Shown in pieces: positions 11,032 to 52,328 of a stretch of DNA of 64,000 nt. How positions within the stretch are numbered: the first letter of the stretch is position 1; every line of letters starts with the position of its first letter. The stretch covers positions 96,001 through 160,000 of the forward strand of contig JBEKFP010000001.1 in NCBI GenBank assembly GCA_050013255.1. The letters are read 5' to 3'. This stretch comes from Candidatus Bathyarchaeia archaeon. Lineage in GTDB: Archaea; Thermoproteota; Bathyarchaeia; 40CM-2-53-6. A program made the translations under genes and the position numbers. The notes beneath the pieces are model-generated. The model was not told where the DNA came from, did not search any database, and saw only the letters and a list, made by a program, of their open reading frames with translations.

Positions 11032-11182
11032 TCTGAGCCGACAGTGCTGGAATTTACCCGTCTATCGCTATCGAGGTTCACCTAGTAGATCATTAGCCGG
11101 TTGCTCATGATCCCCTCCCCTTTTTCTAAAGGTTAAGGCATGAAAAACCTCGACCGTCTTTATCTGCACTTTCCACCGCTCC

Positions 11183-11479
11183 TGTGGAAGCGGGTGGATC
11201 GGTATTGGGGACATTAATTATCTAGTGTGTTTGCCTCCGAGTAACATTGGTTCCCCACAACATTACACCACCCACCACCCCCCCACGGGGGGTCCACCCA
11301 TTGAGGGGTGGTGCCAAACGGTGCCAAAAGTCCCAGTTGAACAACCTAAAATCCACTTCGAAAGGCGGACAAGGCTTGAATCGAAACCGGCTCCTAAACC
11401 AATTACCCGATTAACCCGCGTCACTTCTTGTCTAGCATATGTTATACACTGGTTGACTATGCGAACCAGTGTAATTGGT
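11183..11479. repeat. Dispersed modular intergenic repeat, long copy
   Basis: 11183-11200 = 36343-36360 (18/18); 11295-11327 = 36361-36393 (33/33); 11449-11472 vs 36450-36473 (23/24); 11252-11276 vs 39288-39312 (23/25). Confidence 0.85.
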
Positions 11480-11485
11480 AACGGA

Positions 11486-11932
11486 TCATCGTCGTCTAAT
11501 TTTACTCAGGAGAACGTAGAGTCCTGATGCGATTAGTATGGCGACGACGGCGTATACGATGTATTTCTCGAGTACGCCGATGCTCACGCCGAGTGCTGTT
11601 ATGTAGCATGGTTCGCCTGGATCGCATGAGCCGTAGACTGCGTAATTGTAGAAGGAATATGCTGTAATGAATAGTGATACGAAGAAGGAGGCGGTAAATG
11701 CCCACGCGAAGATTCTAAAGTTCTGGTAGAAACCTCTCGCCAAGGTCGGGGATATATTGAGCAATTTTGCGGTGACTTTGGCCTTAACCTTCTGCTCAAA
11801 AGCCATGTCGCAGGGACTCAACATCAGGGTTTTCGTAACGCACTTGAACGCTTCCTTTGCGAGCCTGCGATATTTCGCTGACCATATGCTCATCACTGAG
11901 AAGACTACGAGAGCAACCAAACATAGAGGCAT
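11486..11932 (-). CDS. Hypothetical membrane protein with several cysteines
   Basis: 148 aa, about 3 hydrophobic segments; AKEAFKCV..SPCD and GSCDPGEPC. Confidence 0.75.
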   Translation of the reverse strand: MPLCLVALVVFSVMSIWSAKYRRLAKEAFKCVTKTLMLSPCDMAFEQKVKAKVTAKLLNISPTLARGFYQNFRIFAWAFTASFFVSLFITAYSFYNYAVYGSCDPGEPCYITALGVSIGVLEKYIVYAVVAILIASGLYVLLSKIRRR

Positions 11933-12194
11933 TCACAGGCCAGCACCATAACCCCGGAGTCCTAATCCCAAATAATGTTCTTCAATAGAGAACATATACC
12001 ATTCTGGTGTTGAGGCACAGTCTCCACTCCTTCGCCACGGCTAAACCCGCTCTCCTAGCGCGATTCCCTGGACAGGCCATCAGTGTTTTCATAATCATTA
12101 AAGCCGGCGAAGTTATGCTCCCAAAATACCGCACGACTACCCTAGAGGAATTGACACAATTCAAAGTTTTCAGGCAAATGGAAAGGAATGGAAA

Positions 12195-12857
12195 ATGCTC
12201 CAAACGCCATGGGTCAAGCGTGGTCTTCTCAGAATCCTGCTCGGCCTGTTTCTTGTGCTTGCGATGCTAACTTCTTTCGGGCATTACCTGGACACATCTC
12301 TAACTTTGCACATGATTGTTCAACACGCCTTCTACCTTATCGGTGGTTTCTTGATCACGGCAGGCGCGGATATGTTAGTCCTAGCCTGGTCGGGGGTTTC
12401 AAGTACAGCGTCTAGGGCATATTCGGCTTTGTTGCGCATTAATGCCACGTATAACAAGAGAGGTTTAGTGACGTTCTTCATCGCGGGCCTTCTTGTTTGG
12501 TATTGGCATTTGCCAGTAAACTTCGACGCTGCTGTATTGGACGAGAGCATTCACATTCTGATGCATACGACGTTCATGGTAGTTGGAAGTTTGATTTTTG
12601 CTGGCTCGAAGCTCCTAACCTGGCGCGTTCGCACCTTTTTGTTGCTCATACCGAGCAAAGCGATGGGTATCTTCGGAGCGTTCCTAATGTTTACCTCCGG
12701 CTACATTTATTCCGTATACCCAGAGTGGCAACAAACGCAATGCGGCCTTGCTATGGTGGTTATGATGCTGGGGATGGATCTGACCCTCGTCCCGTTTTGG
12801 CTGTACAAATATTTCCAGGCACCCACGGCACCACCCTCTCAGGCGATGGGTCGCTAA
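12195..12857 (+). CDS. DUF1404 / CtaG-like membrane protein (cytochrome c oxidase assembly factor-like)
   Basis: HMIVQH, WYWHLPVNFDAAV, HILMH and YSVYP..QQ motifs; multiple TM helices. Confidence 0.8.
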   Translation: MLQTPWVKRGLLRILLGLFLVLAMLTSFGHYLDTSLTLHMIVQHAFYLIGGFLITAGADMLVLAWSGVSSTASRAYSALLRINATYNKRGLVTFFIAGLLVWYWHLPVNFDAAVLDESIHILMHTTFMVVGSLIFAGSKLLTWRVRTFLLLIPSKAMGIFGAFLMFTSGYIYSVYPEWQQTQCGLAMVVMMLGMDLTLVPFWLYKYFQAPTAPPSQAMGR

Positions 12858-22916: not shown

Positions 22917-24062
22917 TTGAAGCTCTTCGAATATGAAGCGAAGGAAATCGCGCAACAGTACGGCGTTCCTGTTCCAAAAGGGTTAGTCGCGTCAACCCCC
23001 CAAGAAGCGAAGGATGCTTACTTGAAGCTCGGCCAGCCTTCGATGGTTAAGGCTCAGGTTCTGGTTGCGGGTCGGGGCAAGGCGGGAGGAATCAAACCAG
23101 CCTCAAGCCCTGAGGAGGCAGAGGAGGTTGCAAGGCTAATCCTTTCGATGTCAGTCAAGGGTGAGAAAGTTGCTAAGGTTCTTGTTGAACAGAAACTAGC
23201 CAGCAAACATGAGCGGTACGTCAGCATCGTTGTCGACCGAGCGTCGCGTTGCTACACAATTCTGTGCTCGACGGACGGTGGCGTAGACATTGAACAGGTC
23301 GCTAACGAGCACCCTGAAAGAATCATCCGGCATAAGCTTGAACCACTAATTGGGCTGCAGGATTTTGAGAGCAGAGCCGTCGCGAAGGGGATAGGGTATT
23401 CTGGTAAGCAGATGAACCAGGTAGCCTCCATCATCAACAAGCTCTTCAAAATCATGCTCGACTACGACGCTGAACTAATCGAATCTAATCCGCTAATTGA
23501 AACAGAGGCCGGAGAGCTAATTGCCGCTGACCTAAGGATCCTCTTAGATGATAACGCGCTCTTCAGGCACCAGAAATTCCTCGAACGCATGAAAACGCTT
23601 GAACCTGATATGACACAACTTGAGATTAAGGCACGGGAGAAAGGTTTGGCCTATGTTGAGCTCGATGGCGAGGTTGGAATTATCGGAAACGGCGCAGGCC
23701 TGGTCATGGCTACATTGGATATGATACTGGATTACAAGGGTAAGCCTGCGAACTTCTGCGACGTGGGCGGTGGTGCCAGCGAAGAAAGAATTGCCGCTGC
23801 CCTTGAGATCGTGCTTGCCAACCCGAAAGTGAAGGTGCTTCTGATCAACATTATGGGTGGAATTACACGGTGCGATGACGTTGCGAGAGCAATTCTTGAT
23901 ATTCAGAAGAAAATGGGCATCACCAAACCTATGGTCATCCGATTAGTAGGAACCAATGAGAAAGAGGGACAGAAGATTCTCGCCGAGGCTAACATACCCT
24001 CACTGAACAGCATGGAAGAATCTGCGGCAAAAGCTGTGGAGTTAATTCCGAAGGCGAAGTAG
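22917..24062 (+). CDS. sucC: Succinate--CoA ligase (ADP-forming) beta subunit
   Basis: MKLFEYEAK; [15 protein letters not shown]; GNGAGL; [10 protein letters not shown]; GGITRCD. Confidence 0.92.
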
Positions 24063-24063
24063 A

Positions 24064-24930
24064 ATGCCAATCCTAGTGGGAAGGAAAACCAAGGCGATCG
24101 TCCAAGGCATTACTGGTTCACAAGGAGACTTTCACACAAAGCTGATGCTTGAATATGGAAGCAAAATAGTTGCAGGAACCACACCCGGTAAAGGCGGAAC
24201 CGTGGTGCATGGGGTCCCGGTTTTCGACTCGGTCCAGGAAGCTGTTGAGAAGTTCAAAGCCACCGCGTCTATCATCTTCGTTCCAGCCCCAGGCGCCAAG
24301 GACGCCGCTCTCGAAGCCATCGCCGCCGGCCTCAACCCGGTCATAGTCATTACAGAAGGAATTCCTGTCAAGGATGAGATCCAGATGATGGAAGTCGCCA
24401 AGCTGAAGGGAGCCACCATCATCGGACCAAATACGCCTGGTATCATAACGCCGGGGCAATGCAAGCTGGGCATAATGCCTGGGCACATCTTCAAACCCGG
24501 CAAGGTAGGGTTAGTTTCTAGGAGTGGAACGTTGACATACGAAATCGCTGCCAGCCTCACCAACGCCGGCCTTGGACAATCCACCTGCCTCGGAGTTGGG
24601 GGTGACCCAGTTGTAGGTTTGAGCTTCGTAGACGTCCTTGAAATGTTCAGGAAAGACACTGCAACAAGGGCTATTGCGATGATCGGCGAAATTGGAGGTA
24701 ACGCCGAAGAAATGGCTGCTGAATACGTAAGGAAGACCAAATACCCGAAGCCAATCGCCGCTTATGTTGCTGGACGTGCCGCCCCCCCAGGAAAACGCAT
24801 GGGACACGCGGGTGCAATCATCACCGGGAAGGCTGGAACAGCCGAAACGAAAATCGAAGCCCTCAAACACGCAGGAGTGAAGATTGCTCTCAAACCTGGC
24901 GAGATTGCGAAACTCCTCAAACGACGTTAA
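24064..24930 (+). CDS. sucD: Succinate--CoA ligase alpha subunit
   Basis: QGITGSQG; GPNTPG; SRSGTLTYE; KRMGHAGA phospho-His motif. Confidence 0.93.
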
Positions 24931-25016
24931 ACAACCCCATCTGTCAACCTAACGTTTTCTTGAACATCGAATTAATAGCGCTGCAACTGAAACAAAGCTG
25001 GGAATGGTAGTTTCCG

Positions 25017-26333
25017 TTGTTGAGACGAACACATTACACGGACGAAATAGAAAACGCGAAAGGCCAATCAGTCGTCTTAGCTGGGTGGGTCCACGACATT
25101 AAGGATCTCGCTCGGGCGAGATTCATTTGGCTAAGGGATCGGCAAGGTATAGCGCAGGTCACGATAATCAAAGCAAACGCCACGCCTGAGATACTGAAGC
25201 TATCAGGAAGCCTGGGTAAGGAAGATGTCATCACGGTTGAAGGTACTCCCGTCAAAGAAAGGATCGCTAAAGTCGGAGCCGAGATTACACCAACCAGGAT
25301 TGAAATCGTCGTCAAAGCAGAGGCAGCCCCCCCACTTGACATTTCCGGAAAGATTGAGTCTAACTTGGACGCGCGCCTTGATTGGCGTGTGATCGACTTA
25401 CGGAGGCGGGAAAACCTCGCAATCTTCCAGATCCAATCAAAACTCGTTGAGGGAATGGTAGAATACCTCCAACAGAGAGGCTACCTGCAAGTCTTCACAC
25501 CCTGCCTGCTTGGTGGAACATCCGAAGGCGGCGCGGAAGTTTTCAAACTAGATTACTTCGGCAAAGAAGCCTTTCTGCGACAGGACCCACAACTCCACAG
25601 GCAGTTGTGCATAGCAGCGGGGTTCGACAAAATCTACGACCTGGGACCAAATTGGCGGGCTGAACTCTCCCACACCCCTCGCCATCTTTGCGAGCATAGA
25701 GGGATGGCGGTTGAATTTGGTTTCATGAACGACGAGGCCGACATGATGAGAGTTGAAGAAGAAATGGTTGTAGCCGCAATGAAGAAGGTTAGAGAGAACT
25801 GCACGAAACAACTTGAACTCCTGCAAATTCAAGTGGAGATTCCGAAGACGCCACTTCCTGTAATGAGATTTCCCGAAGTCTACGAAATACTTGGCGAGTA
25901 TGGCAAGAAGTTACCGCACGGAAGCGACCTGGACAAAGAAAGCGAAACCTTGCTGAGCAATCACGTTCAGGAGAAACATAAGTCCGACATGTTTTTCATT
26001 GATAGGTACCCGTTCAAAGTCAAACCCTTCTACGTTATGCGCGTCGACGAGGAACCTGAATGGTCCCGAGGCGTCGACCTCGTGTACAGGGACACCGAGC
26101 AATCGTCGGGTGGCCAGCGGGAACACCGACACGAGAAGATCATGGCCCAGTTGCGGGAGAAGAATGTTAACCCTGAAGCAATGAAATGGTTCACCGAACC
26201 CTTCAAGTTCGGCGTCCCACCCCACGGCGGCTTCTGCCTGGGCATTGAGAGGTTCACGATGGCCTTACTCAAGAAGGAAAACGTGAAAGAAACGACCCTC
26301 TTCCCCCGCACACCCGAACGCCTCTTGCCGTAG
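25017..26333 (+). CDS. aspS: Aspartate--tRNA ligase (archaeal type)
   Basis: RTHY...AGWVH OB fold; EGGAEVF; SGGQREHR; GVPPHGGFCLGIER; FPRTPERLLP. Confidence 0.93.
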   Translation: MLRRTHYTDEIENAKGQSVVLAGWVHDIKDLARARFIWLRDRQGIAQVTIIKANATPEILKLSGSLGKEDVITVEGTPVKERIAKVGAEITPTRIEIVVKAEAAPPLDISGKIESNLDARLDWRVIDLRRRENLAIFQIQSKLVEGMVEYLQQRGYLQVFTPCLLGGTSEGGAEVFKLDYFGKEAFLRQDPQLHRQLCIAAGFDKIYDLGPNWRAELSHTPRHLCEHRGMAVEFGFMNDEADMMRVEEEMVVAAMKKVRENCTKQLELLQIQVEIPKTPLPVMRFPEVYEILGEYGKKLPHGSDLDKESETLLSNHVQEKHKSDMFFIDRYPFKVKPFYVMRVDEEPEWSRGVDLVYRDTEQSSGGQREHRHEKIMAQLREKNVNPEAMKWFTEPFKFGVPPHGGFCLGIERFTMALLKKENVKETTLFPRTPERLLP

Positions 26334-26342
26334 CTTAGAAAA

Positions 26343-26373
26343 GTGGTGGGTTCCAATCCGACCGGCCCCACCA
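26343..26373 (+). repeat. tRNA 3'-end fragment 1 (T-arm + acceptor 3' strand + CCA), att-like scar
   Basis: GTGGTGGGTTCCAATCCGACCGGCCCCACCA; 26349-26373 matches 28705-28729 at 23/25; no 5' tRNA half upstream (aspS stop is at 26333). Confidence 0.8.
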
Positions 26374-26375
26374 CG

Positions 26376-26487
26376 TCATGGGATTAATAGCCAGTTTCTT
26401 ACCCTGTTCCACTCAGCTGTCATCCAAGCGAGACTGACATACTCGATCGTCAGTCCACGACGTAGAAGCCTTAACTGCTGTTCACTT
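26376..26487 (-). pseudogene. N-terminal fragment of a cation-diffusion-facilitator-like transporter
   Basis: SEQQLRLLRRGLTIEYVSLAWMTAE resembles the CDF start 'RRGLxLEYxxxxW..xE'; the frame ends at the tRNA fragment. Confidence 0.5.
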
Positions 26488-26955
26488 ACTGCGCTTAGGC
26501 CTGGAATTGTACTCTTTCCTGGTTGGAAGTTCATCTTGTTGAAGCCAAGACGGGTGCTGCTCGGCGTAGTCAACAAAGCGTTCCATACGCTTTACAGTAT
26601 CCTTGTGGACGTGATGCTCGATACCTTCCGCGTCAGATTTGGCGATTTTCTCTTCGACGCCGAGAATTCTAAGGAATTTGAGGATCGTACGATGTCTCTG
26701 CTGCACAGATTTCGCTAACTGTTCTCCACTGCTTGTCAGAGTGAGGCCTCGGTAACGCACATAGACGATGAATCCCTTTGCATGTAATCTCTGAAGCATG
26801 ACTGTAACGCTAGATGGTTTGACAGCAAGAAGTTCTGCAATGTCTGCTGATCTAGCGTAGCCCTTCTTCTGTATGAGTTCGTAGACGACTTCAAGGTAAT
26901 CTTCAACTCGTGTGAGGTCGAAAGCAGGGTTCAGTCGCGAGCCTTGAGTCATCAC
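26482..26955 (-). CDS. mntR: DtxR/MntR-family metal-dependent transcriptional regulator
   Basis: EDYLEVVYEL; ARSADIAELL; SVTVMLQRL; DAEGIEHH. Confidence 0.92.
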   Translation of the reverse strand: MMTQGSRLNPAFDLTRVEDYLEVVYELIQKKGYARSADIAELLAVKPSSVTVMLQRLHAKGFIVYVRYRGLTLTSSGEQLAKSVQQRHRTILKFLRILGVEEKIAKSDAEGIEHHVHKDTVKRMERFVDYAEQHPSWLQQDELPTRKEYNSRPKRSK

Positions 26956-27146
26956 ATTGGCACTTCCCGTACTGATGAGAAAAACAGGTAGGCATTAGGC
27001 TGAATGATTCTGTCGGCTGAGATCAAAGCTGGGACTAGCGCGATTCTTCTGTTGAACTCTTTCATCATTTTCTGCTCCCTTATGTCTCAACAGCCTTCTT
27101 CTTTCACCATCATTGTCACTTGTCAGTTTGTTCTTAGTAAGCCAGT

Positions 27147-28478
27147 TTATCGCAGCGTAGCGTAAACAAGATACAGATGATAGGCGCCGTAAGCCCCTAG
27201 AATCATAGCCTGCAGATAGACGCTGAATGGAGCCATAATATAGTATATCAGGTACGTGTTTAGCGCCACAATTACCGTCCCAGTTAACACACCGAGGAAT
27301 GTGGTTAAGCGTTTGTTGACAAGCTGCCCCATGAGGTCTTTCTTGGCGGTGTATACTAGCAGAGGTATCATGGGTAACGCGATCATCAGGCTCAGGAGTA
27401 CTTGGCTGTAGACCAACAGGGACAGCGGGTCTAGACCTAGAAGCACCGCTACCGTCGTTGGAAAAACGTTGAAACCTCTCGTGATAACCCTTCTGACCGT
27501 TTTGTTCACCTTTGTCCCCAGCAAGCCGTCCATGACCGCTTGACCAGCTAACGTTCCGGTCGTCGAGGAGGCAAGGCCGGAGCATAGCAGCGTCACAGCG
27601 AACATAATGGCGGCGACCGGTCCGTAGATTGGTATCATTATGCGGTACGCTTGGTCCACTGCTGACACGTTGGTGAACTTCGGGTAGAAGACCTGCGCGC
27701 TCACGATCAGGATCGCAGCATTGACCATCCCGGCGATCGTGAAAGCAAAGATGCTTTCGCTGGTATGGAGCTTCAACAATCGTTTCCTTTCCTCACCGGT
27801 GTGCTCCATCACTTTGTCCCTGGTCAGCGTGGAATGTACGTACAAAGCGTGTGGCATCACGGTCGCGCCGATGATGCCAACTATCAAGACTATGTTGTCG
27901 GGGTTAAGCGCGGGGGAGACAAAGGATTGAGCAAGCTGAGTTATGTTCAGGCCCGTCACGAAGACTTCGTAGAGGAAACCGAAACCGATGATCGATATGA
28001 ACACCATAAAGAAGTATTCGAGCGACCTGAAACTTCGCGATGTTAGAGCTAGCAGGATTAGGATATCAGCGGCGCCGAATATCGACGCGTAAAGGAGGGG
28101 TACGTTGAATAGTATGTTCAGGGCGAGAACAGTGCCTAGGTATTCGGCAAGGTCGGTGGCCGCGATTGCTGCTTCGGCCCCAATCCAGTTCAGAAAAATG
28201 TCAAACCTTCTTCTGCTCGACTTGTTAAGAGACTCTCTGACGAGTCCCGCTAAATCTTTGCCCGTTGCTATTCCTAGTTTTCCGGAGAGATACTGGAGGA
28301 GCATCGCCATGAAATTCGCCATCCAGACAACCCAGAGCAAACCGTAGTTGAATGCGGCCCCCGCCTGTATGTCTGTGCCGTAGTTCCCCGGGTCCATGTA
28401 TGCCATGCTGGTGATTAATGCGGGACCCGCGAAGATGAAAAGTGCACGATACTTGCTAACGAATCGCCGCATCTGCAA
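27147..28478 (-). CDS. mntH: Nramp-family divalent metal (Mn2+) transporter
   Basis: AYMDPGN; GATVMPHALYVHS; GTLAGQ; SQVLLS. Confidence 0.95.
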   Translation of the reverse strand: MQMRRFVSKYRALFIFAGPALITSMAYMDPGNYGTDIQAGAAFNYGLLWVVWMANFMAMLLQYLSGKLGIATGKDLAGLVRESLNKSSRRRFDIFLNWIGAEAAIAATDLAEYLGTVLALNILFNVPLLYASIFGAADILILLALTSRSFRSLEYFFMVFISIIGFGFLYEVFVTGLNITQLAQSFVSPALNPDNIVLIVGIIGATVMPHALYVHSTLTRDKVMEHTGEERKRLLKLHTSESIFAFTIAGMVNAAILIVSAQVFYPKFTNVSAVDQAYRIMIPIYGPVAAIMFAVTLLCSGLASSTTGTLAGQAVMDGLLGTKVNKTVRRVITRGFNVFPTTVAVLLGLDPLSLLVYSQVLLSLMIALPMIPLLVYTAKKDLMGQLVNKRLTTFLGVLTGTVIVALNTYLIYYIMAPFSVYLQAMILGAYGAYHLYLVYATLR

Positions 28479-28480
28479 AT

Positions 28481-28494
28481 TTAGATGAACCTAA
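28481..28494 (-). promoter_or_regulatory. Putative DtxR/MntR operator TTAG-N6-CTAA immediately upstream of mntH
   Basis: TTAGATGAACCTAA palindrome resembling the DtxR/SirR-family TTAGGTTAACCTAA core; abuts the mntH start. Confidence 0.65.
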
Positions 28495-28684
28495 CTAGTA
28501 TAGAAGCTACTATTTTTGATAGGCAAGCCAAGCCTTAAGTCTTTAGTTCTTTGCTTTGCCATTCAGCAAGATCGGCAAAGCAGTATTCGACCTGCCCGTA
28601 ATGCGCTGTCCTCGGGTATCAGGCCGTATTTTCTGAGCGGCCCACATCCCCGAATGGGAAGCCTGAACAGGCCTATTGGCTCTA

Positions 28685-28729
28685 TTGAACCCACGATATT
28701 GATAGGTTCAAATCCCACCGGCCCCACCA
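28685..28729 (+). repeat. tRNA 3'-end fragment 2 with an upstream 7-bp inverted repeat, att-like scar
   Basis: TTGAACC-CACGATATTGATA-GGTTCAAATCCCACCGGCCCCACCA. Confidence 0.8.
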
Positions 28730-28857
28730 TGCTCCCAACCATCTTAGAGCAATATGCTTGCGTTTGGCGCGCAATGGGTTTGTTTTCGGGTTGTTTTGGT
28801 TCTGCGTGGGTGGGGGTTTCTTCCTTTGGTTTAAACTCTCAAGTTGCTCGACGCTCT

Positions 28858-28962
28858 TATGTCGCGGGTTACGAGCTAGACGTTACTCTCATCCTGCTAT
28901 CACTTGTGCTCGCTCTACTTGGCAGTGGTGCGCTATCAATCGACCACCTACTCGGAATCTGA
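28858..28962 (+). pseudogene. DoxX-family C-terminal remnant
   Basis: GYELDVTLILLSLVLALLGSGALSIDHLLGI matches the DoxX C-terminal GYE...G.G..S.D pattern; the upstream frame is not DoxX-like. Confidence 0.65.
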
Positions 28963-29199
28963 ACATGAGATACAGTGTCGATCGTGGTCGACCCCACGTA
29001 CTAGCCCCTGAATCGCTCCTTTCCTTTTCTCTCTTTTCTCCGTGAACGCACCTGACACGAGAGACCAGTCTAGATACGAAGAGTCGCGTCCCATCCTCAC
29101 GCGAGAAAACGGAGTACCTAGCGTTCGAGAATGCCTAAGGCGAAACCGGTTTGTCTTTGTTCATGGCGTAAGTTTGCTCTGCCTTTTGGGTTCCCGAAG

Positions 29200-29820
29200 T
29201 TAGGAGCGTAAGGTTCTCGCTATGATTCTTCTTGTCTTGTAGAAAACATATAGTGCGTCAGCAACTTGAACAGGTGATGCGCTAGTGATTCTTCCAAGTC
29301 TTCTGATGAGGTCTTCATATTGCAGAGCCTCAGCTACGGTAAAACCTCCTCCACTGTATGGCTTGGGGGGCAGACCAAATCCGAGAAGTTCTAGAGCATG
29401 CCATGAAGGGTTGCCTAGGATTCCGTAAGTTTCGGGCCAGGTCAACGTTAACACTGCACACGCAAGAACAGGTCCAAATCCCGGTATTCTACACAATGCG
29501 CTGACGCGATCTTCATCATCACGTTGCATCAGCGCGACGCCTAGTTGCTTCTCTAGTTCAATTGAACCCTGCTGAATCCTTCTTCGCAGCGGTTGAAGTT
29601 TCTTCCATTGTATGATGGCATTCACATCAGTTTTGGTCCAGAACCTATTGCCTCCTTTTACTTGAGTTCCAACCTTGAAGAGATGTTCACTCATTGAAGT
29701 TCGTTCAACTGCTTCAAGCTCTTTATGATAGCAAAGTAATGCATCGAAGTCTCGAACAAAATCAACGAAAATTGGACTATAACTTTCTGGACCAATTCCA
29801 GTTATGTGCGGCGTTTCCAC
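29200..29820 (-). CDS. Hypothetical protein with a helix-hairpin-helix motif
   Basis: IIQWK...LCRIPGFGPVLACAVLTLTWPETYGI. Confidence 0.6.
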   Translation of the reverse strand: METPHITGIGPESYSPIFVDFVRDFDALLCYHKELEAVERTSMSEHLFKVGTQVKGGNRFWTKTDVNAIIQWKKLQPLRRRIQQGSIELEKQLGVALMQRDDEDRVSALCRIPGFGPVLACAVLTLTWPETYGILGNPSWHALELLGFGLPPKPYSGGGFTVAEALQYEDLIRRLGRITSASPVQVADALYVFYKTRRIIARTLRS

Positions 29821-29837
29821 GCTCTGTCACTCCTAGC

Positions 29838-31046
29838 TCAACGTCTCATAGCCTTGTCAAACAACGGTATGGCAACAGTCATGGTTAGGAACGTGTAGAC
29901 TATGAGTATGAGCACGTCGGGCATGATGGCGGCTAGGCTGGCGTTGAGAATTATCACTTTGCGCAGTGCATCTGCTGCATAGTAGAGCGGCAAAGCTTTT
30001 CCAATGTACTGCAACCATCCTGGTAATTGGTCGATTGGGAATAAGATGCCGCTGATGAACATCATTGGGAATTGTAGCAGCATAGTCATCATTTGAGCGG
30101 TTTCTTGGTCGGGAGCGACAGCCGTCATTATTATGCCGACGCCGACAAAGCTTGCTGTTCCGAGCACCATGACGATGAACATGATGATTGGGCTGCCGTA
30201 GATTTGGACGCCGAAAAGCAGCATTGATAATCCGAGGATGAGGAAGCCTTGAATTAGTCCGCGTACGGTTTGCGCCGCCACCTTGCCAAGTATGATTGAC
30301 ACGTGCGGAATTGGGGAAGCTAGGAGACCGTCCATAGTGCCCTGCTCCCTTTCACGTGATATAGCGGACGCGACTCCTTGGAGAGATCCGGTGATTACGG
30401 TCAATGCCATGAAGCCTGGTGCAAGGAATTGGAACGAGGAGGAAACTCCGGTGATGAGGGGGATCTTGGTGATGGAGATGGGTTGTATGATGAAGGCGGG
30501 GTTGACTTTGCCGCCGCTTATGTTATTGATGCTTTGAGTTGACATGTCTGAACCGATTATTCCGAACACGGCGGATATCTCGGACTGGACGACGGACGCG
30601 ATTGTCGGATTTGTCTCGTCAACGGTGACTTGGATTGTGGCGGGCTGGCCGGCGGCGATGGCGTCGCTGAAGCTCTGCGGTATGATTATGATGCCTTTGA
30701 TGTTTCCTTCCACGATCTGGTCGCGTGCTGCGGGGTAGCTTGCGATTTCAGATATCTTGAACAGGCCCTGCTGTGCTGAGATTTGGATAAATTGGGCTGC
30801 AACCGAGTTTGCCGTTTGGCCGTCATCCATCTGCACCAGCGCTACAGGAAGGTTTGAAAAGGCGGTGCCTATGTTGCCCGTGCTGGGGTTGGACTTCGGC
30901 ACTGGTGGATAAATAAATCCGAACATAGTCATTAACAGGAGGGGCATCAGGATGAAGAAGAACAGGAGCATTTTGGCTCGCCAGAGGTCTAGGAGGTCGC
31001 GTCGCGCTATGCCGACCGCCACTGCCCATGCGCTTGCTTTCGCCAT
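29838..31046 (-). CDS. ABC-2 type exporter permease (DrrB/YhhJ-like)
   Basis: REREQGTMDGLLASP; SGILFPIDQLPGWLQ; PLYYAADALR. Confidence 0.9.
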   Translation of the reverse strand: MAKASAWAVAVGIARRDLLDLWRAKMLLFFFILMPLLLMTMFGFIYPPVPKSNPSTGNIGTAFSNLPVALVQMDDGQTANSVAAQFIQISAQQGLFKISEIASYPAARDQIVEGNIKGIIIIPQSFSDAIAAGQPATIQVTVDETNPTIASVVQSEISAVFGIIGSDMSTQSINNISGGKVNPAFIIQPISITKIPLITGVSSSFQFLAPGFMALTVITGSLQGVASAISREREQGTMDGLLASPIPHVSIILGKVAAQTVRGLIQGFLILGLSMLLFGVQIYGSPIIMFIVMVLGTASFVGVGIIMTAVAPDQETAQMMTMLLQFPMMFISGILFPIDQLPGWLQYIGKALPLYYAADALRKVIILNASLAAIMPDVLILIVYTFLTMTVAIPLFDKAMRR

Positions 31047-31047
31047 T

Positions 31048-31863
31048 CTACGTCCGCCCCATTGGAGATCGCAAGGAGATGTGGGCATTAGCGGAATCAC
31101 GCAGCTCGCGGCCTGTGAGTTCAAGGAAGATGTCGAGCAGGCTGTTCGTTTTGTACTTGTCTTTCAGAGCTTGGGGCGTGTCAATTGTCATGACCTTGCC
31201 ATGATCGATTATGCATATTCGGTCTGAGAGTTCGTCTGCTTCTTCCATTATGTGCGTCGTGAGGACAATGGTGTGACCGCGCTGCTTCAAGTCCTTGACT
31301 AGATCCCGTACGAAGCGGGTACTCTGCGGGTCAAGGCCAGTAGTGGGTTCATCAAGGAATAGGATGTCGGGGTCGTGCAGAACTGCACGAATCACGTTTA
31401 CCCGCTGTCTCATCCCGCTGGAGAAACCCCCAACCAGTTTATCCTTGAACGGTGTTAACTTAACCATCTCCAGGAGCTCCTCGGACTTCCGCCGCAGAGC
31501 AGCCCGATCGATACCGTAAAGACTTCCGAAGAACATCAGGTTCTCCAGCGCGGTCAGCCGCGGGTACATAATCATCTTCTCGGAAACCAGCCCTATCCGC
31601 TCACGCACCTCACCTGCATGATAAACAACATCATACCCATCCACTCTGGCCGTTCCCTCCGTTGGTATCAATAGCGTGCAAAGCATCCGTATTACAGTGC
31701 TTTTGCCTGCGCCGTTCGGGCCGAGGAAGCCGTAGATTTCTCCCCTCCGCACGGCAAGGTCGACGTGGTCGACGGCTGTGAAGCTACCAAATTTCTTCGT
31801 CAGACCATGAGTCTCAATCGCGTACTCGGATAGCGGAGCCAAATCGGCTCTCTGGAGAGTCAT
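31048..31863 (-). CDS. ABC exporter ATP-binding protein (DrrA-like)
   Basis: GPNGAGKS; FSSGMRQR; LFLDEPTTGLDP; TTH. Confidence 0.93.
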   Translation of the reverse strand: MTLQRADLAPLSEYAIETHGLTKKFGSFTAVDHVDLAVRRGEIYGFLGPNGAGKSTVIRMLCTLLIPTEGTARVDGYDVVYHAGEVRERIGLVSEKMIMYPRLTALENLMFFGSLYGIDRAALRRKSEELLEMVKLTPFKDKLVGGFSSGMRQRVNVIRAVLHDPDILFLDEPTTGLDPQSTRFVRDLVKDLKQRGHTIVLTTHIMEEADELSDRICIIDHGKVMTIDTPQALKDKYKTNSLLDIFLELTGRELRDSANAHISLRSPMGRT

Positions 31864-31969
31864 TATGATGCCTCAGTCGATTCCTATCGTGTCCGATCCC
31901 TGGAGCCGTCTCAGCTTGCTCTGAGAAACAACAACTGTACCGCATTGCTGACAAGTCAACATTTCTTCA

Positions 31970-33211
31970 TCACTCGTACTTCAACGCGTCTATCACATTC
32001 ATTTTTGATGCTTTCCAAGCAGGATAAAGACCCGCCACAATAGCGATAACAATTGGGAAGAACAAGCTGAACAGAATTAGTTCTGGGCTAAAGACGGGGC
32101 TAGAAGCAAATGACGTTGAACTCGTGCCACCTCCAGCTCCGAATCCGCCTCTGCCACCGCCGAATAGGCCACCTCCTATCACGAACGATAACAGGTAACC
32201 AGCCGCCGTACCGAGTAAGCCGCCGATTAATCCGATGAGGATGTTTTCGGAAAGAAACATGGCAAGTATTTGGTTTCGTCTGAAACCTAGTGCTTTCAGG
32301 ATTCCGATTTCTTTTGTTCGCTCTATTACTGCAACGTAAGTTGTGTTAGCAACCATTATTGCCGCAACGAATAGTGAAACGGCTCCTATGCTTCCGAGAA
32401 ATATCGTTAATTGCCCGGTGATTGCTGATATGCTGCTTGCAATTGAGCCCGCACTTATTACTGAAATATCGGTGCCGTACACACCTTGAATTTCCGATTG
32501 AACGGTTGCAACGTTATCTGCTGAGTCAACGATCACGTAGATTGCGCTGAAATTTTGAATTTTCATCAATATTTGTGCGGCTTGTAGCGACACGAATATG
32601 TTGTTGTCAACATTACTGAATAGAGCGGAGCCATATGGCGAGAGGATACCTTTCACTAGGAAACTGAGGCTTGAGCTGCTTGAGCCTATTTTCATGGAAA
32701 CAACTTGATTCAACCCAACCAATCCCTGACCTGATGAGGGATAAGCGATGTTGTACCCGATTGTGGCAGAAGTAGACTCATATGAGTCTGGGAACTGCCC
32801 GTCTTCAAGCGCTAACCCTTTGAATATCAATGGGAGCGCCCTTGAATCAATTCCAATGAGTGTTCCTGAAACTGATTGACCTCCCACGCTCACGGTTGCT
32901 GGTCTACTGTAGTATGGGTAAACCTGGGTGACGTATGGAAGATTACCTAACCGTGGAATATCTTGAATGGAAAGCGCAAAAGACGAGGAACTTCCTGTAA
33001 GGAAGTTTGACCCTCCAGCACGAACTATGAGAACGTTGGCGCCAATCTTTTCCACTTGAGCGTTTATGCCAACGCTTAATCCGCTTGAACTTGCAATCAA
33101 AGCCATGATTACGGCTGAACCAATCATTATTCCAATAACGGTCATAGTGCTTCGGGCTTTTCGGTCAACTAGAGCTTTAACCGCTAATTTGAATAAATCA
33201 TTTACTCGCAT
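31970..33211 (-). CDS. MacB/FtsX-like ABC permease
   Basis: RSTMTVIGIMIG; ERTKEIGILKALG; GLYPAWKASKM..ALKYE. Confidence 0.9.
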   Translation of the reverse strand: MRVNDLFKLAVKALVDRKARSTMTVIGIMIGSAVIMALIASSSGLSVGINAQVEKIGANVLIVRAGGSNFLTGSSSSFALSIQDIPRLGNLPYVTQVYPYYSRPATVSVGGQSVSGTLIGIDSRALPLIFKGLALEDGQFPDSYESTSATIGYNIAYPSSGQGLVGLNQVVSMKIGSSSSSLSFLVKGILSPYGSALFSNVDNNIFVSLQAAQILMKIQNFSAIYVIVDSADNVATVQSEIQGVYGTDISVISAGSIASSISAITGQLTIFLGSIGAVSLFVAAIMVANTTYVAVIERTKEIGILKALGFRRNQILAMFLSENILIGLIGGLLGTAAGYLLSFVIGGGLFGGGRGGFGAGGGTSSTSFASSPVFSPELILFSLFFPIVIAIVAGLYPAWKASKMNVIDALKYE

Positions 33212-33233
33212 AGGGTTTCACATTTCATATTTT

Positions 33234-33278
33234 CTAGCGTCTCATTGCCTTGTCAAACAATGGTATGGCGACAGTCAC
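33234..33278 (-). pseudogene. 3'-terminal remnant (14 codons + stop) of a second ABC-2 permease copy
   Basis: Encodes VTVAIPLFDKAMRR*, matching the end of 29838-31046 (MTVAIPLFDKAMRR*) with synonymous substitutions. Confidence 0.8.
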
Positions 33279-33310
33279 ATCATATCATTCCTTATTCGTT
33301 CGCTTCCATA

Positions 33311-33387
33311 TATCGGTGCGATACTATCTTATCGATAGTTGGTGATGGGTAATATTAAAATACGCCGCCTGATGTATCGATGCGATA
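33311..33387. promoter_or_regulatory. Divergent promoter with three TATCG-N3-CGATA-type palindromes (putative PadR operators)
   Basis: TATCGGTGCGATA 33311-33323; TATCTTATCGATA 33325-33337; TATCGATGCGATA 33375-33387; AT-rich box at 33351-33360. Confidence 0.65.
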
Positions 33388-33390
33388 TGG

Positions 33391-33801
33391 ATGCGGGGAT
33401 GGCTCATGGCGAAGGGATTTCAGACTGGCCCGTACGAGGTAATGTTCTTTCTGGCTTTGAAGGATGGACCGGCGTATGGGTATGAGTTGGCTACGCGGTT
33501 TAGGAAGATGACTAGAGGGCACATTAAGGTCAGTTTTGGTACGATCTATCCTTTCCTTCGGCGCATGGAGCGCAGAGGAATAATCAAATCGACTCGAGAT
33601 GAGGGGTCGAGTAGAGTTTACTATGCGCTTACGCCCAAGGGTCGAACGGCTCAAACGAAGATTTTGAAACGGATCAAGGAGTCGCAGAAGGAATGGGAAG
33701 AGAAATTGCTTGGAATTCTGGCGATGCATGCAGAAGTGTTCGGACGGAGAGCGCTTCACGCCCTGTTGGAACGTGGAAAGCTCTTGGCGAAAACGTCATG
33801 A
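33391..33801 (+). CDS. PadR-family transcriptional regulator
   Basis: GPAYGYEL; GTIYPFLRRME; YYALTPKG. Confidence 0.9.
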   Translation: MRGWLMAKGFQTGPYEVMFFLALKDGPAYGYELATRFRKMTRGHIKVSFGTIYPFLRRMERRGIIKSTRDEGSSRVYYALTPKGRTAQTKILKRIKESQKEWEEKLLGILAMHAEVFGRRALHALLERGKLLAKTS

Positions 33802-33820
33802 TAGGGGGTCTGGTGAAAGC

Positions 33821-34003
33821 ATGAAACGACGAGCCTTCTCGATCGTTGGTGCAATAATCGCGCTGTTTGGTTTGGTATGGTTCCTACAGGGAGCCGGCAT
33901 GCTTCCTGGCAGTGTGATGAGTGGTTCGCAATTCTGGGAAATAGCGGGCGCACTAACTCTCATTGTAGGTATCGCAATCGTTGCTTATTGCCTGAAAGCT
34001 TGA
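33821..34003 (+). CDS. Small two-TM membrane protein
   Basis: GLVWFLQGAGMLPGSVMSGSQFW between two hydrophobic helices. Confidence 0.7.
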   Translation: MKRRAFSIVGAIIALFGLVWFLQGAGMLPGSVMSGSQFWEIAGALTLIVGIAIVAYCLKA

Positions 34004-34020
34004 GATGGATTAAGTGGGAG

Positions 34021-34434
34021 ATGAAAGAAATGCAACCTTGGGTCGAAGTCGCGAACGTCAACGAGGTCACACCGGGCAAGATGAAACACGTAGAGGTTGA
34101 GGGGGAGGAAATTATGGTCGCTAACGTTAACGGCAACTTTTATGCTGTTAGTGATCGGTGCGGGCACACTAATGCACCACTATCTATGGGTGGCTTGAGG
34201 GAAAACATTGTCACGTGCCCATTACATGGCGCCCAGTTTGACGTCACCTCTGGACGAAAGATTGCGGAACCCAAAATGGGCCCGCTACCAAATGTAGAGC
34301 AACTCCCTGAGAGCTTCCTTAAGCTTATCGAGCATTCAAGCCGAATCACGGGGAAGATCAAGACGTATGACCTCACCTCTTACGAATTGCGTGTTGACGG
34401 CGACAAAATAAAGCTCAAAGTTCCGACGCACTAA
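34021..34434 (+). CDS. Rieske [2Fe-2S] ferredoxin
   Basis: CGH...CPLHGAQFD. Confidence 0.9.
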   Translation: MKEMQPWVEVANVNEVTPGKMKHVEVEGEEIMVANVNGNFYAVSDRCGHTNAPLSMGGLRENIVTCPLHGAQFDVTSGRKIAEPKMGPLPNVEQLPESFLKLIEHSSRITGKIKTYDLTSYELRVDGDKIKLKVPTH

Positions 34435-34680
34435 TGTGATTTCAAAGACAAATCCGATCATGGATGGATATCAACCAATATTGCAGACGTCATCCTCCCA
34501 GTTTCCTCACCCAAAGTAACTACGCCCTTTTTGTCCCCACAATAATCACCCCTCCCAACCTTCCTTGGCCCGTGTGTAAGGTTTCTTACCAAACAGACAG
34601 AGTTTTGGAACCTGAAAAATTAACAACGGTTATCAGCCACTGTTCGGTGATACCGCGACAAAGCTCTGGGGAATGGAAGA

Positions 34681-36255: not shown

Positions 36256-36342
36256 CCGGCCTGGGCCAACCCACCTTCTACTTCTCTTTTCCCTTTTGAA
36301 ATTCAGACCGGCAGTTCTATGCAAGAATGAGCGCTGACCACG

Positions 36343-36480
36343 TGTGGAAGCGGGTGGATCCACCCATTGAGGGGTGGTGCCAAACGGTGCCAAGCGAAGG
36401 TAACGCTCGGCTCATTTTACGCCTCGATCCCCTCATACGAAGCGGTCTGCTGGTTGACTATGCGAATCAGTGTGAGTGGT
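36343..36480. repeat. Dispersed modular intergenic repeat, short copy
   Basis: Shares three blocks with 11183-11479; contains the perfect palindrome GGGTGGATCCACCC (36352-36365). Confidence 0.85.
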
Positions 36481-52233: not shown

Positions 52234-52328
52234 TGGTGGGCCCGCCCGGGTTCGAACCGGGGATCTCCGCCGTTCCCATATCATCGATAATGTGAGGGCG
52301 ACGTCTTAACCAGCTGGACTACGGGCCC
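52234..52328 (-). tRNA. tRNA-Val(CAC) with an 18-nt intron at 37/38 (52273-52290) and encoded CCA
   Basis: GGGCCCG-TA-GTCC...AGAC-G-TCGCC-CTCACA[TTATCGATGATATGGGAA]C-GGCGG-AGATC-CCCGG-TTCGAAC-CCGGG-CGGGCCC-A-CCA; bulge-helix-bulge with helix CTCA/TGGG. Confidence 0.95.

Follow-up and report, generated by a model that had tools for sequence, protein, structure and literature searches.

How does a pair of manganese-uptake genes come to lie between two displaced copies of a tRNA 3' end, and did it move there as a unit? The question is raised by a 64-kb stretch of a Bathyarchaeia metagenome-assembled genome (MAG), in which mntH and mntR are enclosed by two 25-nt direct repeats, or cores, derived from a tRNA gene located elsewhere. 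The stretch, hereafter the window, is contig 1:96001-160000 of G000, a three-contig MAG of 2.46 Mb with an estimated contamination of 8.55%; it is present in 20 peat and wetland runs (19 studies), and the close relatives of G000 are Candidatus Bathyarchaeia or Bathyarchaeota MAGs from soil and peat. A preliminary description of this DNA had proposed either a minimal cargo cassette mobilized in trans or a series of integration scars. We find that the interval 26349-28729 is probably, at roughly 65%, an integrase-less cargo cassette of integrative elements that target tRNA-Pro(GGG), still exchanged at the tRNA-derived cores.

Both cores are located on the plus strand, span the T-loop, the 3' strands of the T-stem and of the acceptor stem, the discriminator A and CCA, and are identical to each other at 23 of 25 positions, exactly as first described. 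Scanning the window with up to three mismatches recovered these two matches and no others, compared with none in 100 dinucleotide-preserving shuffles. At up to two mismatches the whole genome contains 12 core matches (0 in the reversed control), and the core pattern occurs in 22 of the 23 genomes of the genus (again 0 in the reversed control), some of the matches in both searches being the 3' ends of other tRNAs. The T-arm of the core is a 5+7+5 palindrome, the usual crossover site for tRNA-targeting tyrosine recombinases, and CCA is encoded in all tRNA genes of the genome. The aspS stop codon lies 15 nt upstream of the left core, with no tRNA body there. No integrase and no parent tRNA was found in the 64-kb window, as the preliminary description had noted for the surroundings of the cassette; the sole tRNA of the window is at 52234-52328.

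The suggestion that the fragments come from a tRNA-Pro was borne out by a genome search. The parent tRNA-Pro(GGG) is a 180-nt gene on contig 3 (122293-122472; L009:2293-2472), and its 3' 25 nt (122448-122472) are the right core; the left core matches it at 23 of 25 positions, with one mismatch in the T-loop and one in the T-stem. The gene has four predicted introns of 29, 22, 21 and 31 nt, whose removal leaves 77 nt that ARAGORN folds into a canonical tRNA-Pro(GGG). Splicing was performed manually, guided by the tRNA-Pro(CGG) of another genus of the same order, to which the last 42 nt of the parent are identical; single-intron removal gave conflicting anticodons and was abandoned. Intron 4 contains a 7-bp helix (CCCTAAG/CTCAGGG) that becomes CCCCAAG/CTTGGGG in G004 and G017, a compensatory pair. 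Owing to the four introns, the parent tRNA was missed by both ARAGORN and the Rfam RF00005 model. Since RF00005 detects only 21 tRNAs in G000, many of its tRNA genes are probably multi-intron.

Downstream of the parent tRNA, about ten more cores within 16 kb bound segments of 0.1-3.2 kb. The cargo of this contig-3 array includes a CitMHS transporter, zinc-ribbon membrane proteins and a single tyrosine integrase, and both the further fragments and the linked integrase that had been anticipated are thereby located just downstream of the parent tRNA. The integrase gene (contig 3:131049-132086; PF00589, 4e-19) sits directly on a tRNA-Pro core, and its frame is open through that core (...VEPAWNPRYWWARIPPAPPFNEPTPLSELAAF... 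/ ...EPAWNPRYWWARIPPAPPFNEPTPLSEL...). An in-frame GTG is present in the arm upstream of the core, and in G000 there is no ATG, GTG or TTG between CCA and the conserved N-terminal helix, with the caveat that the G017 integrase has an in-frame GTG eight codons past CCA. Full-length homologues abut the parent tRNA-Pro in G017 (83%) and G016 (73%), and a decayed copy does so in G000. Among nine loci of this integrase family (34-83% identity), the frame exits the tRNA 3' end in seven, at several different tRNAs; the other two are a locus at a contig end with no upstream sequence and the G000 copy, whose frame passes through two cores. Immediately after CCA stands the motif F-x-E-P-x-P, which is found again at another tRNA, in an integrase of 44% identity. 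The family (loci L056-L063 and L066 of the genus, and the contig-3 copy of G000) consists of Xer-like PF00589 integrases that lack PF16795, with frames that exit the 3' ends of tRNA-Pro and of at least two other tRNAs.

The best NCBIfam match of the integrase is archaeal XerA, below cut-off, and no relative of it was found in viral contigs. A recombination site within the integrase frame is a hallmark of the suicidal (type I) integrases, which have been tied to Pfam PF16795 (Phage_integr_3) and, in the conclusions of the review concerned, to hyperthermophilic archaea (PMC8371274). The present integrase carries its site within the frame and yields only PF00589 at E <=0.001, with no match to PF16795. 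An integron was considered and ruled out by the scores with the integron-integrase models (60 and 40 bits against cut-offs of 265 and 435) and by boundaries that are tRNA ends, not attC hairpins.

The two ends of the manganese unit carry further traces of such elements. The arm left of the right core is shared with the contig-3 cores, and because it is a decayed copy of the arm from which the integrase starts, the right end of the unit is the right end of a tRNA-Pro integrative element. Compared with the family, this arm (...GAACCCACGATATTGATA) has undergone two transitions, GGTG to GATA, which yield TGA and TAG and break the frame. On the left, the core is followed by a module that is also found directly 3' of tRNA-Pro cores in G018, G004, G011 and at contig 2:295575 of G000; the window copy ends short of the module end, precisely at the point where the CDF gene is cut. 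A 'common left boundary' in G018 was rejected as a defined cassette end, being the truncation point of G000, past which the G018-type copies run on into the CDF gene.

The cassette is part of an 8.1-kb variable island between aspS and an mrp/NBP35-type gene. The aspS region is syntenic in G014 (94%) and in G004 and G018 (83-84%), and comparison of the locus downstream of aspS, which the preliminary description had recommended in search of empty sites or alternative cargo, revealed both: G004 has an empty site, and other cargo is present in G014, in G018 and in a strain of 99% identity, so that the arrangement is not invariant among relatives. In G004 (83-84% identity), aspS is followed by ~160 nt and then by the homologue of window position 34529 onward; since these are joined there, 26335-34509 is an insertion. 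A candidate pseudo-attachment site at the empty locus (GAAAGTGAGGAGT versus GAAAAGTGGTGGGT) was recognized by eye only. The closest relative, G014 (92-94% across 20 kb of adjacent genes), loses homology at 26369 and regains it at 34510, and its island consists of 11.4 kb of unrelated DNA with a differently decayed core right after aspS. G018 has ~25 kb between aspS and the downstream block. Two runs contain, as a loose end, the sequence that follows aspS in G014, and therefore both island types coexist in peat and wetland habitats.

The 99%-identical strain is represented by metagenome contig Ga0208321_1000081 (L070, 113.9 kb), which is 99.1% identical to window positions 24000-28730, both cores and the cassette included. 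To the right of the cassette it has a different segment of 1.56 kb, followed by window 31754 onward at 95%; 1 nt to the left of the right core, the 99% identity gives way to 4 differences within 26 nt. The segment (reverse complement of 11144-12742) encodes, as read from the translation, an AbrB/SpoVT-like small protein, a ~260-aa membrane protein and a small open reading frame (ORF). It ends in a second arm type (TTAGTCCCACGATTTGTG) and a core, which join a truncated ABC ATPase gene.

The cassette has also spread horizontally between species. In three relatives it occupies another locus and is more similar to the G000 copy than the core genes are (all identities are relative to G000): 88% versus 82% in G018, 87.5% versus 65-70% in G008, and 85.8% versus 66-72% in G011. 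The JBAVCK MAG has a copy at 89.5%, on a contig that ends inside mntR, and the cassette is absent from G014, a 100% complete genome with core genes at 92%. On the right side, homology ends within ~5 nt of the right-core CCA in G000, G018, G008 and JBAVCK, which have four different right flanks. The CDF cuts of G000 and G008 coincide within 3-6 nt while the flanks are unrelated on both sides; the two genomes thus have one truncated unit in common, set in unrelated surroundings. In G008, a remnant of the C-terminal part of an integrase, Int(C), 78% identical to the contig-3 integrase, lies 8.4 kb left of the cassette in the same orientation, consistent with a larger element whose right end holds the metal module.

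The G018 copy (contig 2:373000-381200; L024:6147-14130) is located between two paralogous Na+/H+ exchanger genes, in another ion-transporter island, and an inverted tRNA-Pro-like core lies 430 nt from its left end.

Table 1. Features of the mnt cassette and its surroundings, with positions counted from the first letter of the window
Feature	Position	Strand	Evidence and remarks
aspS (aspartyl-tRNA synthetase), conserved left flank	25017..26333	+	Pfam tRNA-synt_2, 1e-71
Variable island, 8.1 kb, aspS to mrp/NBP35-type gene	26335..34509		mnt cassette, DoxX tail, unknown 206-aa ORF, ABC-2/ABC ATPase/FtsX transporter genes, PadR, Rieske
Left core	26349-26373	+	GGTTCCAATCCGACCGGCCCCACCA; copy of T-loop, T-stem 3' strand, acceptor 3' strand and CCA of tRNA-Pro(GGG)
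Post-core module, first 39 nt of ~55-60 nt	26374..26412	+	TATCATGGGWTTAAYAGCC...CTCATTTTGAGCCGTTT; cut exactly at cassette start
CDF-type (cation-efflux-like) 5' remnant, 26 codons	26412..26489	-	VSEQQLRLLRRGLTIEYVSLAWMTAE; overlaps mntR stop; cut at 26412
mntR, DtxR-family Mn-dependent repressor	26482..26955	-	Pfam PF01325 (Fe_dep_repress) and PF02742; NCBIfam NF003025, 151 bits (cut-off 138)
mntH, NRAMP-type Mn2+ uptake transporter	27147..28478	-	Pfam Nramp, 2e-101; NCBIfam NF001923, 442.5 bits (cut-off 430)
mntH upstream region	28479..28582	-	conserved block, candidate operator/promoter; 9-bp inverted repeat
Element-side 'arm 1'	28670..28704	+	...CTATTGAACCCACGATATTGATA; decayed copy of the arm giving the start and first codons of the integrase (contig 3:131121)
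Right core	28705-28729	+	GGTTCAAATCCCACCGGCCCCACCA; 25/25 identical to the 3' end of the parent tRNA-Pro(GGG)
DoxX-family 3' remnant, last ~50 codons	28816..28962	+	ends ...LGSGALSIDHLLGI*; 5' part lost at right core

The gene content of the cassette agrees with the preliminary description, which had read mntH, mntR and the start of a CDF-like gene cut off at the left fragment, and a DoxX remnant just outside the right one. MntH and MntR were recognized by Pfam, and both exceed the curated NCBIfam cut-offs and qualify as members of these families. Neither remnant was detected by Pfam (E up to 10) or by six-frame family searches; blastx against the genome's own paralogues detected both. The CDF remnant is identical at 12 of 20 positions to the N-terminus of a CDF-like ORF in G000, and the DoxX remnant (28816-28959, plus strand) matches the last 53 residues of a G000 DoxX paralogue (36%, E 1e-6 in a small database). 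The CDF gene is kept to a different extent in different copies: it is cut at codon 26 in G000 and at codon 25 in G008 and L072, G018 keeps ~50 codons, and L071, a metagenome contig of the G018 type, retains at least 192 residues (56% identity, E 2e-72). Ancestrally, the cargo was mntH-mntR-cdf.

An operator had been proposed in front of mntH. A block of ~45 nt directly upstream of the gene is indeed kept in an alignment of five relatives and contains a DtxR-box-like half-site, AACCTAA, read by eye, as a candidate operator. Farther out, 75-105 nt upstream of mntH, is an inverted repeat of 9 bp without mismatch (28552-28560/28574-28582; TGCTTTGCC N13 GGCAAAGCA). In the 'class b' relatives, shared homology extends only up to about 28550-28582. 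The inverted repeat sits where the homology to relatives without a right core ends, and it is partly deleted in G018.

Taken as a mechanism, these features would fit a cassette left behind by integrative elements that target tRNA-Pro(GGG) in this Bathyarchaeia genus and still swapped among them. The cargo is a metal module of three minus-strand genes (mntH, mntR and the cut CDF gene), in which MntR, to judge from the protein families, presumably acts at the conserved upstream block to repress mntH under ample Mn2+. The right end consists of the integrase-start arm followed by the displaced tRNA 3' end, as is typical of the right end of such elements, and the left end abuts the second core with the 39-nt module. 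The cassette resides in a secondary island at a non-tRNA hot spot, aspS-mrp, where recombination at the 25-nt cores would add, remove and replace blocks. The sequences establish this anatomy, the parent tRNA, an integrase with the site inside its frame, variation at the cores among strains and species, and horizontal spread; which enzyme acts, and that exchange goes on today, is inferred. The enzyme may be supplied in trans by an integrase like that of contig 3, a proposal to which we give somewhat less than an even chance. Alternatively, and with distinctly lower probability, the exchange would be short-homology recombination between the cores.

Two patterns known from islands flanked by attachment (att) sites serve as a yardstick. 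As in such islands, the direct repeats are identical to the 3' part of a tRNA of the same genome, an integrase of matching specificity is encoded in that genome (the contig-3 copy), and presence/absence polymorphism has break points at the repeats (G004, G014 and L070); neither core of the window lies inside an intact target tRNA. The unit also shows what is expected of a cis-mobilizable element (CIME), namely att-like cores on both sides and no recombinase inside.

Several observations weigh against a cassette that is still exchanged. The right arm is decayed, with stop codons, and the left module is truncated, so that the left junction resembles a deletion more than the clean product of a recombinase. 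The two cores of the window differ in the T-loop (TTCCAAT on the left, TTCAAAT on the right) and in the T-stem, which should hinder present-day site-specific exchange between them. Beside the G018 and G008 copies, neither a left core nor the post-core module was significant by shuffling; a core-like 12/17 match on the left side of G008 (p about 0.01) is a hint. Immediately to the right of the core lies a truncated gene, DoxX in G000 and an ABC ATPase in L070, and illegitimate events therefore also shape the island. The integrase is on a different contig from the cassette, in a MAG with 8.55% estimated contamination. Circular junction reads had been suggested as a check; the metagenome contigs showed neither a circular nor an excised form, nor any empty-site read. 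The sole joint of this kind, 26374 to 28705 in two runs, was rejected as an excision product, as its sides are 25 nt long and reflect cross-matching of the repeat.

A serious, if unlikely, rival is that the fragments are unrelated leftovers of separate old integrations or rearrangements and that mnt was never mobile as a unit, the variation arising by deletion and by larger-scale transfer through homologous recombination in flanking genes. Passive scars of this kind would account for a left junction truncated within the post-core module, for cores that both abut truncated genes, for a unit with no integrase and a decayed right arm, and for the missing excision product, the diverged T-loops and the lack of a significant left core in G018. 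They are at odds with a cassette that is far more alike between species than the core genes and found at different loci, with the same CDF cut in G000 and G008 amid flanks unrelated on both sides, with the identity break against the 99% strain at the core edge, and with homology ending within ~5 nt of the core CCA in four genomes. This rival loses weight through the identity seen across species, the truncation that two genomes have in common and the break points that fall on cores, and we favour movement as a unit because G008 shares the CDF truncation and the cross-species identity is elevated.

A very improbable explanation is an enzyme-less mini-casposon, inserted at the tRNA-Pro 3' end by a Cas1-type casposase, in which case the repeats would represent target-site duplications and the ends would be terminal inverted repeats. 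Two Cas1 homologues are encoded in the genome, the family 2 casposon of A. boonei likewise targets the 3' end of a tRNA-Pro (PMC5137440), and the first 15 nt past the left core match the reverse complement of the right arm at 12 of 15 positions. However, that similarity was reached by 200 of 2000 shuffles and is not terminal on the right side, and the locus shows no significant terminal inverted repeats flanked by a 14-15-bp target duplication. The repeat is 25 nt long and includes the T-loop, whereas the casposon produces a 15-bp duplication overlapping the tRNA by 5 bp (PMC5137440). The repeats around the Cas1 genes of G000 are (CA)n ends with ...GCGCACCA cores, unlike those of the window, so the ends of the G000 casposons are of another type. 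Moreover, the tRNA-Pro core in question has a tyrosine integrase directly beside it in G016, G017 and G000.

That the fragments are functional RNAs, either 3' halves of split tRNAs or tRNA-like 3' transcript tags, might be entertained in a genome with heavily interrupted tRNA genes (the parent has four introns) that all encode CCA, but it is extremely unlikely given that they comprise only T-loop to CCA, that the T-stem of the left copy is broken, that more than ten variants decay freely in the genome and coincide with synteny break points, and that an intact tRNA-Pro(GGG) is present. Misassembly or misbinning at a multi-copy core, a natural worry in a MAG with 8.55% estimated contamination and one already voiced in the preliminary description, can be practically discounted: contigs from independent peat and wetland runs bridge both junctions (26276-26914 and 28439-30264) with zero differences, and L070 carries aspS, both cores and the cassette at 99.1%.

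Two repeats in the window stand apart from the tRNA-derived cores. A 40-nt direct repeat (29842-29881 and 33238-33277; 37/40 identical; CGTCTCATwGCCTTGTCAAACAAyGGTATGGCrACAGTCA) encloses the ABC-2 permease, ABC ATPase and FtsX permease genes of the island and has a copy at contig 3:158995 of G011; it may be a second kind of cassette border. A dispersed repeat of ~100 nt at 36337-36476 has several copies of 91-96% identity in G004, G014 and G018.

The kind of structure described here is known from tandem accretion, from captured SSV-type elements and from CIME-like derivatives. Dehalococcoides, for example, reportedly has tandem islands at ssrA with integrase-less, att-flanked derivatives. As in tandem accretion and CIME-type systems, direct repeats of a tRNA 3' end bound the cargo, and one integrase accompanies many recombinase-less, strain-variable segments. 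In contrast to them, the present unit lies at a non-tRNA locus after aspS, on another contig than the parent tRNA, and the segments measure a mere 0.1-3.2 kb, the host being a mesophilic archaeon and mobilization presumptive. The tycheposons of Prochlorococcus are said to combine tRNA-targeting tyrosine recombinases, partial tRNA repeats in islands, nutrient-acquisition cargo and cargo-only units. The likeness to them put forward at the outset is a fair analogy of layout and does not amount to membership; the domain of life differs, and the integrase here is self-splitting.

The closest parallels for the integrase itself are the suicidal integrases of SSV-type elements, pTN3 and pT26-2 (PMC8371274). 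In both cases, a tRNA-derived site lies within the integrase gene, at its 5' end, the integrated C-terminal part abuts the tRNA and a short N-terminal arm with a core is left at the far end; tandem junctions restore an intact gene, and excision needs an intact integrase from elsewhere. The present integrase differs in having PF00589 only, being Xer-like, with an N-terminal arm of ~11 codons and a peat Bathyarchaeia host. What is particular to this locus is the non-tRNA location, the very small enzyme-less units, a self-splitting Xer-like integrase in a mesophile, and swapping between near-identical strains. A broader and tentative proposal, which we regard as rather unlikely, is that the genus runs an integron- or tycheposon-like exchange system, in which self-splitting Xer-like integrases would serve in trans enzyme-less cassettes of 1-3 kb (arm plus core), shuffled between the tRNA array and islands at the ends of protein genes such as aspS and passed between species.

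Gene exchange among the abundant, uncultured Bathyarchaeia is poorly known. The locus provides a compact, checkable case, in which a metal-uptake module occurs in several species with break points on tRNA-Pro-derived cores, public peat metagenomes reveal a cassette swap at the level of strains, and the matching integrase carries the site within its own gene. In practical terms, island borders prone to recombination are marked in these genomes by tRNA 3' fragments that lie far from tRNA genes. Should the integrase act in trans, self-splitting integrases would extend beyond the element families and hosts described previously (PMC8371274), and archaeal islands could be built from very small enzyme-less cassettes, as has been proposed for marine cyanobacteria.

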